NCBI GenBank assembly: GCA_041940025.1
Contig: JBGTSY010000001.1
Location: 19,186 to 83,185, forward strand
Length of the DNA stretch: 64,000 nucleotides
Direction of reading: 5' to 3'
Source: Thiotrichaceae bacterium
GTDB lineage: Bacteria; Pseudomonadota; Gammaproteobacteria; UBA5859
Position numbers and translations under genes: made by a program. Below are positions 15,665 through 62,569 of the stretch, piece after piece (the stretch's first letter is position 1; each line of letters starts with the position of its first letter). The notes under the pieces were generated by a model. It was given only the letters and a program-made list of their open reading frames with translations, searched no databases and was not told where the DNA came from.

Positions 15665-15862
15665 GGTTCAGAGGTGGTGCCTGCGGTGACCGTTTGCTGA
15701 CTGAGTACCCCTCGGGCCTTAAATTGTAATTAGGGGGCGGTCGTATGATGTTGTTGTGCAAGTCCGGAGTTGACCGGAAAGCCTGATACATCTGCCATGC
15801 TCCCACTTGAACCGATTGGTTCAGGGGCTATAGTTGGCGACGACATCTCGGGTACCATCGCC
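15665..15862 (+). ncRNA. ssrS: 6S RNA (SsrS), RNA polymerase-sigma70 regulator
   Basis: By eye, about 60 nt of the 3' half aligns with E. coli 6S RNA (CTTGAACCGATTGGTTCAGGGGCTATAGTTGGCGACGACATCTCGGGTACC vs CUUGAACCAAGGGUUCAAGGGUUACAGCCUGCGGCGGCAUCUCGGAG). The 5' segment GGTGGTGCC can pair with 3' GGTACCATC to form the closing stem. Lies in the canonical zapA-ssrS-ygfA slot. Ends are approximate. Confidence 0.75.
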
Positions 15863-48649: not shown

Positions 48650-48853
48650 TTAACCACCCCCAATGGCTTGTACAATTTCGATTCTATCATCTGAGTTCAG
48701 CCTCACGTCCGCATAGGTACTGCGGGGCACGATCTCTTGATTGAGTTCCACAGCCAGTCGTTTACCTGTCAAACCCAAATCCTGAATTAGCTGATCCAAG
48801 GTCTGATTGACTTTGACCTCATGTTTGTCCCCGTTCAGAATAATTTTCATCAC
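48650..48853 (-). CDS. thiS: Sulfur carrier protein ThiS
   Basis: 67 aa ending in GG. Immediately upstream of thiG. GTG start. Confidence 0.85.
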   Translation of the reverse strand: MMKIILNGDKHEVKVNQTLDQLIQDLGLTGKRLAVELNQEIVPRSTYADVRLNSDDRIEIVQAIGGG

Positions 48854-49358
48854 GTCCCTAGATTTAACAGATTCTAAATTTTACGCTTATTATAATTCTC
48901 TGCCGAATTTTTAAACAGCACACAAAAGAAAATTCAGATCTCCCGGTCAGTTGACGCCAGCAGGTAGCACGAACAACTGCCCCAGAGACGCTTTTCACTA
49001 AAATTGCATCCCACCCTCAGATACAGACGCTATTTTTTCTAATCTCAGCTCTCACTTATCTGGCAAATGACCATCTCCGAACAATCGAACTATCTGGCTG
49101 ATGCTAAAAATGGACAATCGACAATTTCTTGGCGCAGAGGAACGGTTAGCATGGCGAGCGGAACAGTGAAAAAGCGGCTTGACGCTCTCTGCCGCCTTGC
49201 ATGCACGCACATTAAACTGTTAGTTTGAGTAATCGATTTTGGGTTTGGTGTCTAGCTTGTCAATCATTGAGATATGCGAATCACAAGCACACACCGCAAA
49301 AGTCTTGGCACGAAGAGTCAAAACATGATGACTTTGCTATCACTCATAGGTTCAATCA

Positions 49359-49997
49359 TTGTTGCCCTGGAGAATGCCAATGAGCTTCTACGACAAACAT
49401 GTATTACCTCGGTTCATTAATCTAGCTTGCGGTACAAAGCCAATCACTTATCAGCGAAAAAAAGTAGTACCTGAAGCAAGTGGACGAATTTTAGAAATAG
49501 GAATTGGACCAGGACTTAACCTGCCCTACTACGATGCCAACAAAGTAGAAATGGTTTACGGCTTGGAGCCATCGTCAGATATGCGCAAGCTGGCTGCCAA
49601 AAGGGTGAAGCAAGTGCCGTTTAAGGTGGAATTTATCGACTTGCCAGGAGAAGAAATTCCGCTGGAAAATAACTCTGTAGACACGGTGTTATTAACCTAC
49701 ACGCTATGTACTATTCCCGATGGCTTAAGCGCTTTAAAACAAATGCATCGAGTGCTGAAACCGGGAGGCAAATTGATTTTTTGTGAACATGGTGCCGCGC
49801 CCGACGATTCCGTAGAAAAATGGCAAAATCGTATCAACCCTGTTTGGAAACCCATTGCCGGCGGGTGTAATTTAAATCGCAAAATACCCCAATTGATCAC
49901 AGAAGGTGGTTTTAACATTCATAATATGGAAACGGCTTATATCCCCGGCACCCCAAAAATTGCTGCTTATAACTATTGGGGCGCAGCAACGGTGTAA
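49359..49997 (+). CDS. Class I SAM-dependent methyltransferase
   Basis: 212 aa. Motif I ILEIGIGPG and motif post-I/II (VDTVLLTYTL; LKPGGKLIF). Confidence 0.75.
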   Translation: MLPWRMPMSFYDKHVLPRFINLACGTKPITYQRKKVVPEASGRILEIGIGPGLNLPYYDANKVEMVYGLEPSSDMRKLAAKRVKQVPFKVEFIDLPGEEIPLENNSVDTVLLTYTLCTIPDGLSALKQMHRVLKPGGKLIFCEHGAAPDDSVEKWQNRINPVWKPIAGGCNLNRKIPQLITEGGFNIHNMETAYIPGTPKIAAYNYWGAATV

Positions 49998-50209
49998 CTA
50001 TAATGAAATCCTATGGCAAAAGTGAGCAGGCAGTTAAAAACTCTAGCGTCATTAAAACAGACCTATTGATAAACAGCATTATCTAACTTGATTAGTCGGC
50101 ACTCAAAATGCCAGTCAAACTGCTTATTTACACCAAACATTTTGAGCGCGACCCCTGAAAAAAGTGCAACCGGCTTTTTACGGGATCAATCAATTTTAAG
50201 GAGTCTTCA

Positions 50210-50578
50210 TTGAAATCAACAAAGCAAATCGCTCGATGGCTACCTTTTGGACAAGTAGCCGAATTATCCGCCGAGGAGCTACACAATCAAATGGATCAGG
50301 GCCAGGTACAAATCATAGATGTCCGTACTCGGCAAGAATGGCTCAGCTCTCGCATTCCAGGTGCTATCAATCTGGCCATTACTCATTTTTCCAAATCAAA
50401 TATTGAATCGCTCAACCTGGACAAAAAAATACCGACTGTTGCCATTTGCCTTTCCGCTCATCGTAGCATTCCCGCTGTGAGGCAATTACACCAGCTTGGT
50501 TTTGAAAATTGCCAACAACTAAAAGGCGGGATGCGTAGCTGGTGGAAAAATGATCTCCCCACCACAACTGGACAGTGA
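50210..50578 (+). CDS. Rhodanese-domain sulfurtransferase (single domain)
   Basis: 122 aa. IDVRTRQEW...IPGAINL and an active-site Cys loop AICLSAHRS. Confidence 0.75.
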   Translation: MKSTKQIARWLPFGQVAELSAEELHNQMDQGQVQIIDVRTRQEWLSSRIPGAINLAITHFSKSNIESLNLDKKIPTVAICLSAHRSIPAVRQLHQLGFENCQQLKGGMRSWWKNDLPTTTGQ

Positions 50579-50598
50579 AAAGTAACTCATAGACTACA

Positions 50599-51330
50599 GT
50601 GAGGGTGTCCATGCAATACGTCACTTCAGTTGTGGCTTCACTATTACGCAAGGGCAAAGGAAACCGTGCTATCGTTCGGGACACCCAACCCGAAAAACTA
50701 ATAGAGTTATATGACATGGAAGGTTGCCCTTATTGCCGTCTTGTTCGGGAATATTTAACAGAGTTAAACCTCGATGTATTGATTCATCCCTGTCCAAGAA
50801 AAAGCACGCGTAACCGGCAAAAATTAGCAGCCTTGGGAGGCAAACAACAGACGCCTTATCTGTACGATCCCAACACTGATACAGGTTTATACGCATCACG
50901 CACTATCATCGACTATCTAAATGAACAATACGATCCGCGCCGCTTGCCAAAAAAATCCTCCCTCCTATTTGTCACCTCGCTAGCGGTCTCTTTAATGCGC
51001 ACCATGTCAGGTATTTTATATCGCCCTTCCCTCCTGGTTGGTCAACCACTAGAACTGTTTTCCTTCGAAGCCAGTCCCCACTCTCGCCTGGTTAGAGAAC
51101 GGCTCACTGAGATGGAAATTTCCTACCTTTTGCGTAACTCAGCATGTACCGCCTCAGATCCCTCTAACCAACCGAGCACCCACTTTGAGTCAACTCGACA
51201 GGAACTGTTACGCCGAAGTGGTAAGTTACAAATCCCTTATCTTTACGATCCAAATATTGGAAAAGGTTTTTCTAATTTAGAAGACATATTTCAGCACTTA
51301 ACTGATACCTATTCCACACTTCAGAGTTGA
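50599..51330 (+). CDS. Tandem glutaredoxin-like protein: N-terminal domain with CPYC active site, C-terminal domain a degenerate repeat (SPHS)
   Basis: 243 aa. LYDMEGCPYCRLVREYL...TPYLYDPNT...IIDYLNEQY is repeated as LFSFEASPHSRLVRERL...IPYLYDPNI...IFQHLTDTY. Confidence 0.65.
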   Translation: MRVSMQYVTSVVASLLRKGKGNRAIVRDTQPEKLIELYDMEGCPYCRLVREYLTELNLDVLIHPCPRKSTRNRQKLAALGGKQQTPYLYDPNTDTGLYASRTIIDYLNEQYDPRRLPKKSSLLFVTSLAVSLMRTMSGILYRPSLLVGQPLELFSFEASPHSRLVRERLTEMEISYLLRNSACTASDPSNQPSTHFESTRQELLRRSGKLQIPYLYDPNIGKGFSNLEDIFQHLTDTYSTLQS

Positions 51331-51437
51331 ACTCGATCTTTTATGTCTCGGTAAAGAGTTAATCTTGTGCTTTTGCGAATCGCGCCGTTATACTGAAACC
51401 AATAGTATTAAAAATCACAAAATAGGCTCGTTAAATA

Positions 51438-51875
51438 GTGGCTATTCAAAATATATTTAAACAAATTGAAGAAATTAAAAAAGGCATTGAAAATCTCAGC
51501 GTTGAACAGCTAAAAAACGAGATCGATATCAATCCGCCTATTCTTTTGTTAGATATTCGGGAAATTCAAGAACGCATAGAACTGGGATGTATTCCGAATT
51601 CCACCCATTGCCCACGGGGCATGATGGAATTTTGGGCCAGTCCGCAAAGCCCCTACTACCGCGATTATTTCCAGGCCGATCGCAGAACCATCATCTACTG
51701 CGCCGGCGGCGGCAGAAGTGTACTTGCCACGCGAGCCCTATTGGATATGGGATTTAGCGATGTCGCAAACTTAGACACAGGGTTTAAAGGATGGCAACAA
51801 TCCGGTGAAACCATCGAAGACGTCAGCAAAACAAGTCGTTGGATGCGACGCGAGGAAAAAACACCCACATCTTGA
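51438..51875 (+). CDS. Rhodanese-domain sulfurtransferase (GlpE/PspE-like)
   Basis: 145 aa. LLDIRE..E...IP.S and an active-site loop YCAGGGRS. Confidence 0.8.
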   Translation: MAIQNIFKQIEEIKKGIENLSVEQLKNEIDINPPILLLDIREIQERIELGCIPNSTHCPRGMMEFWASPQSPYYRDYFQADRRTIIYCAGGGRSVLATRALLDMGFSDVANLDTGFKGWQQSGETIEDVSKTSRWMRREEKTPTS

Positions 51876-51974
51876 TTGATGCCCGATTGATCCTGCCCAA
51901 AATATTATCGCCATGAAGCCCACTATGGGCCATTAGGATAATCATAGACTACCTCGATAAACCTTCCCGTCCAA

Positions 51975-52125
51975 TTGGGCACGCACTTTGAGTCGACTCG
52001 ACCGCTACTTACACGCCAAAGCGCAGAGTAACACCTCCCTCACTTGACAAGACGAATGTTGGAAAAAGTTTGTCTAATTTAGAAGACATTTTTCAATACT
52101 CAACTGACACCGACTACACACGCAA
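51975..52125 (+). pseudogene. Degenerate duplicate of the 3' end (~150 bp) of the tandem-glutaredoxin gene
   Basis: 51981-52110 aligns to 51176-51330 by eye (cgcactttgagtcgactcgac... / cacccactttgagtcaactcgac...; aatgttggaaaaagtttgtctaatttagaagacatttttcaatactcaactgacacc / aatattggaaaaggtttttctaatttagaagacatatttcagcacttaactgatacc). There is an internal indel and no ORF. Confidence 0.5.
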
Positions 52126-52577
52126 CAAACGAACGGGTATTGATAATTAATCAGTACATTTATATTTTAATTTCCAGATTACTCCGTGTAGGGCAAAGCA
52201 AAACCACTATATTGAGCTAGAGCGAAAGCGCTACATGGTGTGATTTAAGTGAACCATGTGTGACCTACTCGCATTAATAGTTTGGTCAATATTTCAGCAT
52301 GATCATGGGTGCTATCCAAATCGTATCGTGCTGATCTCACAATAGAACTTTTAAATCTGTCATAGCTGATTCGCAGTCTCCGACTTAGATACCCCCCACA
52401 ATTAAACTAACATTTTGCACCAATTTGTCAGTTAAATATTGAATCAGTAATATGACAAATTGAAAATGTACTAGTATATGATTTAAACTCATGCCAACAA
52501 TTGGTGCGTGCTAATTGGTACACGCTTATCGGCCGATAAGACCCTTCACGTTCGTGAGACCCAAACACCATTCAACC

Positions 52578-52889
52578 ATGCAGATATTCCGATACAGGCA
52601 ACACAATTCTCCAGGTGTCTTGATACCAAGTTTATTATGCTTGGCCTTTGTATTTGCCCAATGGAGTAGCTTTCATCACGAACTTGAACATCCCTATCAC
52701 GAGGAACAAACAAGCTGTGAAATTTTTGTTGCATTTGGCAATATCGGCTTTTCTCAACCAACTAGCACCCTGCCCTATCTTTTTGACGCCAAACATACTG
52801 CGCCGGACGTACCCTTATTAACCTTAACTGAACAACTCACCTACAGATCACACCGAATTCGCGCCCCACCCATATCCATCACCGTTTAA
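52578..52889 (+). CDS. Possible small secreted His/Cys-containing protein (speculative)
   Basis: Internal Met of track ORF 52515..52889. MQIFRYRQHNSPGVLIPSLLCLAFVFAQW looks like a signal peptide, followed by SSFHHELEHPYHEEQTSC. No SD verified. Lies in a long AT-rich leader. Confidence 0.3.
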   Translation: MQIFRYRQHNSPGVLIPSLLCLAFVFAQWSSFHHELEHPYHEEQTSCEIFVAFGNIGFSQPTSTLPYLFDAKHTAPDVPLLTLTEQLTYRSHRIRAPPISITV

Positions 52890-53061
52890 GATCAATCAAA
52901 CAGAGTTTCCGGTTCGATCGTTTCGATTTTTTGTTGCTCAAGAGTTATTGAACCTAGTTCTAGGTTGGATTGATACGTTTCTCTACAAAATACATTTTTA
53001 GAAATAGTTTAGTGAGTGCTCTCTATTAGTTGGAGCATTCACCCAATAATTAGGTGAGTTT

Positions 53062-54312
53062 ATGAAATTTCGATCATTTTTAGCGTTAACATTTTCTTTG
53101 TTCATAGTCTCTTCTCACATTAGTCTGGCAAACACCACCGTTAAGATTACTGATAATAATTTCAATCCGGCAATCAGTCTCATTTTGGACGGACGTTATA
53201 CCGATTTAGATCATGAAGAGTTAGAACTACCGGGATTTCAGTTGGGAGGTGAGGCGGGATTAGCAGAGCCGGGGTTTTCAACTGCTCATAACGAATTAGC
53301 GTTATCTGCCTACATTGATGATAAGTTTTACGGATCTGCGACTATTCCCATAATTTACACGAATGGCGAAACTGAAGTTGAACTGGAAGAGATCTATATT
53401 GAAACCTTAGGTCTAGGACATGGCTTGAGTCTTAAAGCCGGTAAATTTTACTCTTCCATAGGCTATTTAAATAGTCACCATGACCATGCCCACGATTTTA
53501 CTGATCGCCCCCTGGTGTACGACGCGTTTTTTGGCGGACACCTGGTGGACACCGGATTACTCGCGCAATGGCTAGCGCCCACTCCTTTTTATCTGAATTT
53601 AGGATTAGAAGTCACTCGTGGAAGCGAATTTCCTGGCGGTGAAAATAAAGATAACAATGAAGGTCGAACTCTATTCATCAAAACAGGTGGCGATCTGGGT
53701 AGCAGTGCAAGTTGGCAACTGGGTCTATCTTATTTTTCAACAGAATTTGACCAACGGGAAGCCGGCGCACATCACCACGGAGATGAAGAACACGAGGGCG
53801 CAGAAAACTTAACGAATGATGGTGAAGTAGAGATCAATGGAATCGATTTTATTTACAAATGGGCACCCAATGGCAATGCCAAGGAAAGTAATTTAAAAAT
53901 TCAAGGAGAATATTTTATACGCGATGAGCAAGGCCGTGCGGAATTTTCCGAAGAAGGCAATGCTGCACAAGCTCAGTATGATGGCGAACACACTGGATAT
54001 TATCTACAAGCTGTGTACCAATTGATGCGTCATTGGAGTGTGGGTATACGTTATGATTCACTATCTGCAGACAATGAAATCACTCAATACAACAGCGCAG
54101 CCATTGCACTCGATGAATTTCTAGAAGAAGCCAATTACGCCGAAGTTGAGGATGATCCTAGCCGATACACACTCATGCTCAGTTACGCACCTAGCCACTT
54201 CAGCCGTATCAGGCTGCAATATGGCAGCCTGGACAACGGGCTGGAAGAGAACGATATTGTCTCTCTGCAATACATCATGAGCTTGGGCTCCCACGGCGCT
54301 CATAGGTACTAA
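53062..54312 (+). CDS. His-rich putative outer-membrane beta-barrel protein (metal-uptake associated)
   Basis: 416 aa. Signal peptide ending SLA-NT. His-rich stretches NSHHDHAHDF and AGAHHHGDEEHEGAEN. C-terminal aromatic ...GAHRY. Immediately upstream of znuA/znuB-like genes. Confidence 0.6.
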   Translation: MKFRSFLALTFSLFIVSSHISLANTTVKITDNNFNPAISLILDGRYTDLDHEELELPGFQLGGEAGLAEPGFSTAHNELALSAYIDDKFYGSATIPIIYTNGETEVELEEIYIETLGLGHGLSLKAGKFYSSIGYLNSHHDHAHDFTDRPLVYDAFFGGHLVDTGLLAQWLAPTPFYLNLGLEVTRGSEFPGGENKDNNEGRTLFIKTGGDLGSSASWQLGLSYFSTEFDQREAGAHHHGDEEHEGAENLTNDGEVEINGIDFIYKWAPNGNAKESNLKIQGEYFIRDEQGRAEFSEEGNAAQAQYDGEHTGYYLQAVYQLMRHWSVGIRYDSLSADNEITQYNSAAIALDEFLEEANYAEVEDDPSRYTLMLSYAPSHFSRIRLQYGSLDNGLEENDIVSLQYIMSLGSHGAHRY

Positions 54313-54320
54313 CTCCGTCT

Positions 54321-55256
54321 ATGAGGAAACGACCCATGCGACTCAAAGACATCGTCAAAGTGATCCCCTTGCTGGTACTCTTGTCGGGTCCCACTGCGGC
54401 ATTTGGAAAAATAGAAGTGCTTGCCTGTGAACCAGAATGGCATGCATTGGTACAGCAAATTGCCGGTGATAGAGTCACCAGTTTTTCTGCGACAACAGCC
54501 TGGCAAGATCCTCACTATATAGAAGCCAAACCCTCACTGGTGGCCAAAGCCAGGCGGGCCGATCTGATTTTCTGTACTGGTGCGGATCTGGAAATTGGCT
54601 GGCTACCGTTGTTAATTCGGCAATCTGGCAACAGCAAAATCAAGCCCGGGCAACCGGGCTATCTATTGGCTGCCGATTGGGTGGAAAAAATAGATGTGCC
54701 CGACCAGATCGACCGTAGATTGGGAGACATTCATGGTGCGGGTAATCCCCATGTGCATCTGAATCCCAATAATTTACTTATTATTGCCGAAGAGTTAACC
54801 GCTCGCCTGATGCTGATTGATGCACAAAATAGCAACTTCTATACACAGCAACTGACAAGCTTCCAACACCAGTGGCAAAAGCAAATGGATCAGTGGCAAA
54901 AGATGGCTGAACCCTTGAGAGGTAAAAAGGTGGTTGTGCATCACCGAAGCTTAGATTATCTGTTCCAGTGGCTCGGCATGACCACGGTTGCCGATTTGGA
55001 ACCAAAACCCGGCCTGCCGCCGACGAGTGGTCACCTGGCATCGCTGTTGACAGTCGTTCAACAAGAAAAACCGCACTTCATTGTCATCGCCGCGTACCAG
55101 AATCATAAAGGTGCCCGTTGGCTTGCGAAACGAACCCATCTACCCATCGTCACTTTGCCTTTCACCGTTGGCGGCGATGCCAAAAGTGATACTTTATTCA
55201 GCCTCTTTCCACGTTCAATCAATTTACTATTAAGCGCGGGCAAAAAAGATGGATGA
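54321..55256 (+). CDS. Metal (Zn/Mn) ABC transporter substrate-binding protein, TroA/ZnuA family
   Basis: 311 aa. Signal peptide. Metal-ligand regions (EPEWH, GDIHGAGNPHVHLNP, VVVHHRSLDY). Confidence 0.8.
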   Translation: MRKRPMRLKDIVKVIPLLVLLSGPTAAFGKIEVLACEPEWHALVQQIAGDRVTSFSATTAWQDPHYIEAKPSLVAKARRADLIFCTGADLEIGWLPLLIRQSGNSKIKPGQPGYLLAADWVEKIDVPDQIDRRLGDIHGAGNPHVHLNPNNLLIIAEELTARLMLIDAQNSNFYTQQLTSFQHQWQKQMDQWQKMAEPLRGKKVVVHHRSLDYLFQWLGMTTVADLEPKPGLPPTSGHLASLLTVVQQEKPHFIVIAAYQNHKGARWLAKRTHLPIVTLPFTVGGDAKSDTLFSLFPRSINLLLSAGKKDG

Positions 55257-56052
55257 ATTTTTGATTCAATTGTCTATCTTAGGCCCGGCGTTATTGGCGG
55301 GTATCGTGGTATTGGCTACTCATGTGATTTTGGGTCAAGAAGTGCTTCGCCGGGGCATAATATTTCTGGATTTAGCCATCGCCCAGGTAGCCGCTTTCGG
55401 TCTGATATTAGCTGGCGCATTAGGCTTGGATATGCAGCACTCGAACAGCCACACATTGCTACCGCAGATGGTTGCCTTTGCCGCCGCTATTGGCGGTGCA
55501 AGCGTTTTATACCTGTTTAGAACCTATGCCGCACAACTGCAAGAGGCGCTTATCGGTACGCTTTTTATCTTGGCAGCAACCGGCAGCGCACTATTATTAT
55601 CCAAGGATCCCCATGGTGGCGAACGCTTAAATGAAATCCTAAACGGTCAAATATTGTGGGTTGAGTATTCGTCATTAACTGGCGCAGCGATTATTTCCGC
55701 AGCCGTATTGATACTCTGGCTGGCCGGGCGTAATCAATTAGGCAACTACCTATTCTATCCCTTGTTCGCTATCGCTATTACCCTGTCTACTCAACTGGTG
55801 GGCGTCTACTTAGTATTTGCCAGCCTGATCATTCCGGCCATCGCCAGTCAAAATCGCTGCAAACCATTATTGACCGCTTATTCTGTAGGGGTACTGGGTT
55901 ATCTCTGTGGACTGGTATTATCGACGTTACTGGATTTTCCCTCCGGCCCCATGATTGCCTGGAGTCTAGCGGGCGTGGCGTTGTTAATTTATCTGATTTC
56001 TCCGAAAAATTGTCAAAATGAGGTTGGCAGCCAATCGCCTCCCATCAGTTGA
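55249..56052 (+). CDS. Metal ABC transporter permease (ABC-3/ZnuB family)
   Basis: 267 aa, about 8 TM helices. Overlaps the upstream SBP gene by 8 bp. Confidence 0.8.
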   Translation: MDEFLIQLSILGPALLAGIVVLATHVILGQEVLRRGIIFLDLAIAQVAAFGLILAGALGLDMQHSNSHTLLPQMVAFAAAIGGASVLYLFRTYAAQLQEALIGTLFILAATGSALLLSKDPHGGERLNEILNGQILWVEYSSLTGAAIISAAVLILWLAGRNQLGNYLFYPLFAIAITLSTQLVGVYLVFASLIIPAIASQNRCKPLLTAYSVGVLGYLCGLVLSTLLDFPSGPMIAWSLAGVALLIYLISPKNCQNEVGSQSPPIS

Positions 56053-62493: not shown

Positions 62494-62569
62494 GGCCAGG
62501 TAGCTCAGTCGGTAGAGCAGGGGACTGAAAATCCCCGTGTCGGCAGTTCGATTCTGTCCCTGGCCACCA
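62494..62569 (+). tRNA. tRNA-Phe (anticodon GAA)
   Basis: GGCCAGGTAGCTCAGTCGGTAGAGCAGGGGACTGAAAATCCCCGTGTCGGCAGTTCGATTCTGTCCCTGGCCACCA. 7-bp acceptor, D/T arms and anticodon loop CTGAAAA folded by eye. Near-identical to E. coli tRNA-Phe. Confidence 0.9.

Follow-up and report, generated by a model that had tools for sequence, protein, structure and literature searches.

A 246-nt scar behind a rhodanese gene of a Thiotrichaceae bacterium as the probable trace of a swapped gene order

How did a decayed piece of a glutaredoxin gene come to lie behind a neighboring rhodanese gene? The question is raised by a locus in a 64,000-nt stretch of DNA from a Thiotrichaceae bacterium (GenBank assembly GCA_041940025.1, contig JBGTSY010000001.1, positions 19,186 to 83,185; here called the window). 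Four genes follow one another there on the plus strand: a class I S-adenosylmethionine (SAM)-dependent methyltransferase gene (MTase; 49380-49997), a single-domain rhodanese gene (rhod1; 50210-50578), a gene for a tandem glutaredoxin (Grx)-like protein that also resembles the N-terminal domain of glutathione S-transferase (GST) (50611-51330), and a second single-domain rhodanese gene (rhod2; 51438-51875). An initial annotation had described these four co-oriented genes, with the rhodanese loops CLSAHRS and CAGGGRS, and, past rhod2, a ~150-bp degenerate copy of the 3' end of the Grx gene. Open reading frame (ORF) and Pfam analyses bear out the genes and loops, and the copy is real, its exact coordinates lying 4 nt to the left of where it was first placed. 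The same annotation held that rhod2 had been inserted and had split a Grx duplicate. We argue instead that the repeat is probably the right half of a deletion scar, left by an older MTase–(rhod1)–tandem-Grx copy, and that the gene order at this locus has been swapped.

The repeat behind rhod2 and the dead methyltransferase start

When the 3' region of the Grx gene was compared by BLASTN with the entire 64-kb window, the live segment at 51168-51319 (plus strand, Grx codons 187-236; also found by a repeat search) matched 51971-52121 on the same strand with 75.7% identity over 152 columns and one gap (E = 8.5e-25, 104 bits). The similarity claimed by the initial annotation is thus significant; the next-best match (E = 0.004) reflects the internal likeness between the two Grx domains. 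The repeat search splits the copy into a 70-nt block (73%) and a 79-nt block (80%), at offsets of 803 and 802. This remnant, which begins 96 bp past the rhod2 stop, carries an in-frame TAA at the codon for Leu-206 and a 1-nt deletion at 52041-52042, and no ORF of ≥40 aa runs over it on either strand. Its 35 differences from the live gene are spread over the three codon positions as 13/9/13 (chi-square p = 0.67), and it has lost 4 of the 8 family-invariant residues of the stretch (G204A, D213K, L230S, and Y234D). Because the differences are spread so evenly and half of the invariant residues are gone, we read the Grx copy as a fragment of a pseudogene that is decaying neutrally. Three independent Logan assemblies (ERR4801157, SRR32696358, and SRR35794075) share the arrangement at 99.6-100% identity, although the SRR32696358 locus stops at 52014 and covers only the first third of the remnant. 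Since it is present in all three, the scar is no assembly artifact, and both this and chance similarity are excluded for the repeat. No similarity was found between the sequence that follows the live Grx gene and that which follows the scar.

The DNA between rhod2 and the remnant is not Grx sequence at all. It begins with what appears to be the ancestral rhod2–MTase spacer (51876-51924, plus strand), in which the ribosome-binding site GGAG has become GAAG. This is followed by the dead 5' end of an MTase gene (51925-51958, plus strand, codons 1 to 11), which reads ATG GGC CAT TAG GAT AAT CAT AGA CTA CCT CGA over 51925-51957, with a stop at codon 4. The MTase start therefore occurs twice in the window, live at 49380 and dead at 51925. 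Homology to the MTase ends at 51958 and homology to Grx starts at 51971, leaving a deletion junction of 12 nt (51959-51970, plus strand) that is assignable to neither gene. The whole scar measures 246 nt (51876-52121), with 11 and 50 codons of the two genes remaining. In a Smith-Waterman comparison of 51876-51975 with the 80 nt that follow rhod2 in the related contig L092, the alignment crosses the spacer and enters the MTase start with a score of 20, which none of 1,000 shuffles reached (mean 7.2, maximum 13). A match of the peptide "IIDYL" (51941-51962) to the end of Grx domain 1, which would have made the Grx remnant a two-piece one, was rejected because the stretch is the MTase 5' end in another frame; 14 of 300 shuffles score equally.

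Gene order in relatives and the proposed history

Contig L092, whose rhod2 product is 83% identical to that of the window, is the closest rhod2-homologue contig with usable flanks. Its homology to the window begins at 51359 and lasts until rhod2 ends, after which come 47 nt and an MTase start, VGLYDKHVLPR. In the sister lineage, the order is DUF389 → rhod2 → 47 nt → MTase → 179 nt → rhod1, beyond which lies a convergent redoxin gene. This order was found in contigs of five different samples (L180 to L183 with P0248, and L184 with P0249), and the rhod2→MTase junction is also present in L092 and L178. Protein identities between sister and window are 89% for the MTase, 84% for rhod1, and 87% for rhod2. 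Two alignments carry the argument. In one, positions 5199-5796 of L180 match window 51359-51958 as one high-scoring segment pair of 600 columns (84.8%), which runs from the region upstream of rhod2 through that gene and the spacer into the first 34 nt of the MTase. In the other, positions 5742-6932 of L180 match window 49358-50585 (78.6%), a match that sets in 21 nt before the end of the spacer and extends through the MTase and the intergenic region to the end of rhod1. The homology of both halves of the scar, their collinearity with the sister lineage, and their decay are thus directly observed. Because the left half of the scar aligns with the sister rhod2–MTase region as one stretch, the older MTase…Grx copy would have lain directly downstream of rhod2. 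In the outgroups (L005 to L012), the MTase gene adjoins Grx without any rhodanese (protein identity to the window of 84-86% for the MTase and 57-59% for Grx), and for this reason we regard Grx as an old member of the ancestral block.

The history that we favor is as follows. The ancestral order would have been rhod2 → MTase → rhod1 → Grx. A second MTase–rhod1–Grx copy then presumably arrived upstream of rhod2. Its left edge would lie 22 nt before the MTase ATG (49358-49379, plus strand), a segment that matches the last 21 nt of the sister rhod2–MTase spacer and contains a GGAG ribosome-binding site; its right edge would fall within 28 nt after the Grx stop. The copy at the old place, now redundant, would have collapsed through one deletion that joined MTase codon 11 to Grx codon 187 and removed ~1,754 bp (49414-51167, as measured on the live copy). 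The stump, with its two stops, single frameshift, and altered ribosome-binding site, would then have decayed neutrally. The net outcome would be a change from rhod2/MTase-rhod1-Grx to MTase-rhod1-Grx/rhod2, of the duplication-and-loss type. We infer in what order these events took place, that the lost copy included rhod1, and where the second copy came from. With a Jukes-Cantor distance of 0.28 between scar and live Grx, set against synonymous distances (dS) of 0.44-0.51 to the sister lineage, decay may have begun at about the time when that lineage split off, an estimate with a wide error.

Of the initial annotation, the general idea that the repeat implies duplication or recombination is upheld by the decayed duplicate, and the specific idea that rhod2 had landed inside a Grx duplicate, with the 150-nt segment as the orphaned 3' end of that duplicate, now seems highly improbable. 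Such an insertion would account for the presence of a Grx 3' remnant downstream of rhod2. However, the 95 nt between the two consist of the rhod2–MTase spacer and the MTase stump, and the adjacency of rhod2 to MTase, and on to rhod1, is intact in the sister lineage. Moreover, rhod2 keeps its own upstream region of 79 nt (51359-51437, plus strand) in both lineages, and homology with L092 and L180 starts exactly at 51359. Nor is there an orphaned Grx 5' part in the MTase–rhod1 intergenic region (49998-50209), where 129 of 300 shuffles scored as high. Synteny thus indicates that it was the MTase–rhod1–Grx block, not rhod2, that moved or was duplicated. Scarcely more credible is the idea that the decayed copy has been retained for a new role, such as a structured 3' untranslated region or a small RNA. 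Its best-conserved stretch (52056-52099) would form a hairpin of -12.8 kcal/mol (z = -2.3), compared with -5.7 kcal/mol (z = -0.2) for the live counterpart, and folding of the whole scar gives z = -2.2. Yet these z-scores are modest, the hairpin has no T-run after it, the substitutions are evenly distributed, and the comparison is limited to one species with one single-nucleotide polymorphism in the scar; a search of 48800-53100 against Rfam gave no match at gathering thresholds or at E ≤ 1. Several of the substitutions in 52056-52099 strengthen the hairpin stem.

Several points weigh against the duplication-and-loss history. Tandem duplication with random loss predicts a remnant of the first rhod2 copy upstream of the live MTase, which is why its absence counts: none was detected in 48854-49357. 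Smith-Waterman alignment with the window's own rhod2 was not significant there and that with L092 rhod2 was borderline (14/500), and across 48854-49379 a six-sequence nhmmer profile found nothing at E < 100 and tblastn nothing significant. No Grx gene or Grx remnant follows rhod1 in the sister lineage, so that rhod1 and Grx are only presumed to have stood together in the lost copy; the sister lineage would have lost Grx at this locus without a trace. The junction itself is resolved no finer than 12 nt. The dead MTase stump is nearer the sister (28/34 identical to the L180 MTase start) than the window's own live gene (23/34), a difference that is not significant by itself, and the dS to the sister lineage is 1.58 for the live MTase, compared with 0.51 for rhod1 and 0.44 for rhod2. 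The affinity of the stump and the high MTase dS are both compatible with a live copy that is foreign or mosaic, at least in its 5' part. Furthermore, the left flanks are unrelated (thiS-thiG in the window and DUF389 in the sister lineage), and since the rhod2 scar is missing too, there may have been more than one event, or a laterally acquired copy.

These points make up much of the case for lateral replacement, a possible but less probable history in which the live block, or at least its MTase part, recombined in from a related, co-occurring lineage and the resident copy was deleted. At codon 2, the stump shares Gly with the sister lineage and the live copy shares Ser with the outgroups; over its first 100 nt, the live MTase is essentially saturated at third positions relative to L180, with 10 of 34 identical; mosaics of alleles are seen here where one gene gives way to the next (the L092/L180 pair and L178, described below); and the missing first rhod2 agrees with this history as well. 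Against it, the dS of rhod1 to the sister lineage is close to that of rhod2, so that most of the block looks vertically inherited, and the stump comparison covers only 34 nt and is not statistically significant. The remnant is 76% identical (DNA) to the window's own Grx, while its alignment with the Grx of L005 or L009 is not significant, and third positions are not overrepresented among its differences, the pattern to be expected of two copies that were still near-identical when one of them died. On the strength of the same three facts (the nearness of the remnant to the window's own Grx, the lack of a third-position excess, and the similar dS of the live-block rhod1 and rhod2), we lean toward tandem duplication within the genome, rather than lateral acquisition, as the source of the second copy.

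Mosaic sequences are evidently frequent at this locus. Between the live MTase and positions 5763-6380 of L180, dS is 1.58 while the flanking rhodaneses show 0.44-0.51, with equal nonsynonymous distances (dN, 0.07), a pattern that suggests allele exchange inside the MTase gene. L092 and L180 agree at 97.4% of positions across DUF389 and rhod2, but from the rhod2 stop onward they diverge sharply (MTase start, 25/33). L178 (ENA SUMM22-1, SAMN21164805, scaffold_28042; 855 bp, aligned to window 51079-51935) is window-like over positions 1-405, including the end of Grx (3 mismatches in 405 nt), and 96.7% identical to L180 over positions 281-855, with a sister-like rhod2; at its end stands what looks like an undamaged start of the MTase gene (ATGGGCCTTTA). 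Either L178 represents a natural Grx–rhod2–MTase arrangement, intermediate or recombinant, or its assembly is chimeric. L002, a metagenome-assembled genome (MAG) of the same species (GCA_041941165.1, JBGTQR010000011.1), is identical to the window through 51464 and unrelated beyond it. The break falls at rhod2 codon 10 and leads into a small minus-strand ORF and then pepA, so that the rest of rhod2 and the scar are absent there; the strain may truly be rearranged here, or the contig may be misjoined in an AT-rich stretch.

The four gene products and the question of a pathway

The MTase (205 aa, with an ATG start; Pfam Methyltransf_11, 75 bits) begins at 49380 in agreement with all of its homologues, and position 49359 is merely that of an upstream TTG. 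It belongs to a very large and strongly conserved family (>7,600 matches at E ≤ 1e-40) in which identity remains at 65-70% even to alphaproteobacterial members. It falls far under all named NCBIfam cut-offs, including those of UbiE, ArsM, and PmtA: 53.2 bits against a cut-off of 216 and 50.8 against 158 for the UbiE/MenG models, and 35.3 against 263 (NF008823) and 43.4 against 510 for ArsM models. The nearest solved structures are uncharacterized MTases and a phospholipid N-methyltransferase. In one of the Logan assemblies (L004, SRR35794075), a 1-nt deletion in an A7 run at window position 49457 shortens the called MTase product to 189 aa; the frameshift is probably not real but an error of assembly in the homopolymer.

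Both rhodaneses carry a PF00581 domain above the Pfam gathering score together with the catalytic Cys loop: rhod1 (122 aa, plus strand) scores 66.2 bits and rhod2 (145 aa, plus strand) 64.6 bits against a cut-off of 22.2. The two are only 26% identical to each other, and both lie below every named NCBIfam rhodanese cut-off. The 79-nt upstream region of rhod2 contains a candidate promoter, TTGTGC–18 nt–TATACT; in the alignment with the sister lineage both hexamers are kept and the spacer between them varies, and a promoter/terminator scan gave a signal no higher than background.

The tandem Grx (239 aa, plus strand; Pfam GST_N_3 in two stretches, 92 bits) differs from a typical single-domain Grx of 85-110 aa in both length and architecture. 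Domain 1 has CPYC at residues 39-42 (Pfam Glutaredoxin, 30.1 bits against a cut-off of 22.9), and domain 2 has SPHS in its place. The initial annotation was right that the second domain is without CPYC and wrong to regard this as a local loss. In an alignment of 24 family members, which are 42-61% identical to the window protein, domain 2 has the motif S-P-x-S/A in 23 (the exception, N-V-K-S, is P0002), and because of this the missing cysteines appear to be a family trait, with no local decay. Domain 1 throughout has CP[YF]C plus an invariant PCP. The family, of about 250 aa, gives 841 matches at E ≤ 1e-3, mainly in Gammaproteobacteria (Alcanivorax, Halieaceae, and Nevskiales). An AlphaFold model (pLDDT 87.8, pTM 0.87) predicts two thioredoxin folds, with domain 1 folded as β-α-β-α-β-β-α. 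Foldseek matched it in the PDB only to single GST N-terminal domains (GSTO1 and SspA; probability 1.0, ~90-110 columns) and found no chain spanning both domains (template modeling scores of 0.25-0.33). There is no Pfam match to GST_C, the second half of the model being another thioredoxin fold, and the sole NCBIfam match is GlrX_YruB, at 20 bits against a cut-off of 88.6. The window protein is the most divergent of its clade: ~17 residues of the domain 2 loop are missing, domain 1 has YAS where the family has the glutathione-binding type YES, and it is 57-59% identical to its nearest relatives, compared with 84-89% for the adjoining MTase. Constraint on Grx may be relaxed in this clade, the sister lineage being without the gene at this locus.

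Do these genes form a system? The initial annotation saw a sulfur-transfer-like cluster, and while the gene set is as it described, the module is weak, the partners being almost never adjacent in 79 genome and 19 metagenome loci. Among the 79 genome loci with a tandem Grx, a rhod1-type rhodanese adjoins it in 2 (L013, from Acinetobacter sp. Ac_5812, and the near-identical MAG contig L014) and an MTase in none; its conserved neighbors in these genomes show only lineage-bound synteny, with fadA/fadB and similar genes. In the 19 metagenome loci of MTase relatives (53-69% identity), neither a Grx nor a rhodanese stands beside the MTase. Homologues of rhod2 with 65-70% identity are widespread in unrelated contexts (DUF389, TauD/SelO, and EAL/GGT); the idea that rhod2 is a mobile cassette was considered and rejected, its native contexts being diverse and unrelated. 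The close relatives supply three pairwise links (MTase–Grx in L005 to L012, rhod2–MTase–rhod1 in L180 to L184, and Grx–rhod1-like in L013/L014), which lend some support to a functional association rather than to a conserved system. The four-gene set is lineage specific, and there is little support for a pathway dedicated to sulfur or selenium, because the MTase and tandem-Grx families usually occur alone. Full-text literature searches for the gene combination or for tandem glutaredoxins found nothing relevant, and searches turned up no characterization of the 205-aa MTase family or of the tandem-Grx family. In L013 (4471-7610), the order is a 176-aa protein gene (whose stop overlaps the Grx start), tandem Grx, rhod1-type rhodanese, and a GMC oxidoreductase, with a LysR regulator upstream and dsbC convergent, so that Grx and a rhodanese are linked here independently and in another arrangement.

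The function that we would favor, with low confidence, is a thiol or persulfide relay. By analogy with GlpE and thioredoxin, the rhodaneses are predicted to bear sulfane sulfur on their loop cysteines, with the CPYC domain as thiol-disulfide partner of the Cys-persulfide, while the MTase would act on some small-molecule or lipid substrate. A more far-reaching scheme, which we find doubtful, takes the pairwise links as marks of one hitherto undescribed thiol pathway, in which the rhodaneses would pass sulfane sulfur or selenium to the two-domain Grx and the MTase would methylate the product; the locus would then be a hot spot of allele exchange, with the scar and the mosaics as its footprints. 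Only a genuine pathway linking rhodanese, MTase, and tandem Grx would give the locus greater biological weight.

Surroundings and likeness to known systems

Upstream of the locus, the region before the minus-strand thiS-thiG genes (48854-49379) has no thiamine pyrophosphate riboswitch or other Rfam family, even at E ≤ 1. An 18-nt inverted repeat around the cluster (49347/52939) was set aside, some 2-3 such pairs being estimated to occur by chance in 4 kb. The ~940 nt past the scar (52122-53061) contain no convincing gene, a 124-aa ORF (52515-52889) having no Pfam match, and may hold further gene debris; G+C over 51876-53061 is 40.6%, compared with 45.8% for the window. Beyond this, 53062-56052 encodes a 416-aa His-rich secreted protein (HHDHAHDF, HHHGDEEHEG) with faint matches to β-barrel porins, followed by ZnuA-like and ABC-3 permease genes; the group suggests a cluster for metal (zinc?) uptake that includes an undescribed outer membrane component. 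The sole Rfam/ARAGORN matches in the window are a 6S RNA (15675-15858, 67.7 bits) and a tRNA-Phe(GAA) (62494-62569).

Among characterized systems, the MTase recalls ArsM/UbiE-like Se-methyltransferases in being a class I SAM-dependent enzyme encoded beside thiol-redox genes, with ArsM-type matches at E 1e-8 to 1e-11. However, at 35-43 bits it is far from the cut-offs of 263-575, and with 205 aa it is without the extra domains of ArsM. Each half of the tandem Grx is a predicted thioredoxin fold like those of Omega-class GSTs, SspA, and Grx2, and domain 1 has CPYC/CPFC as in dithiol glutaredoxins; unlike a canonical GST, the protein has no helical C-terminal domain and instead has a second, cysteine-free thioredoxin fold (S-P-x-S). 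Single-domain rhodaneses of the E. coli GlpE/PspE type work with thioredoxin or glutaredoxin partners. Like these, rhod1 and rhod2 are single-domain proteins with a six-residue Cys loop (C-x4-R-S), and they adjoin a gene for a CPYC thioredoxin-fold protein. They differ in scoring only 33 and 25 bits against the NCBIfam GlpE cut-off of 102, and in that the redox partner here is a two-domain protein without a solved equivalent.

The scar itself is easier to place. Like other bacterial pseudogenes, the stump is truncated, has stops and a frameshift, has lost its ribosome-binding site, and shows codon-independent substitutions, so that for annotation the 1.2-kb "empty" stretch after rhod2 holds dead genes. 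A repeat that resembles the footprint of an insertion would thus prove to be that of a deletion. The rearrangement is of an ordinary kind in bacterial genomes, and it provides a clean worked example of a gene-order change that can be read from a 246-nt scar plus one sister lineage. Compared with the tandem duplication-random loss model, only one of the two predicted scars is detectable, no rhod2 remnant standing upstream of the live copy. In the features that remain, the locus is much as that model would have it: relative to the sister lineage, the rhod2 and MTase-rhod1-Grx blocks have changed places, and a decayed partial copy marks the old position.

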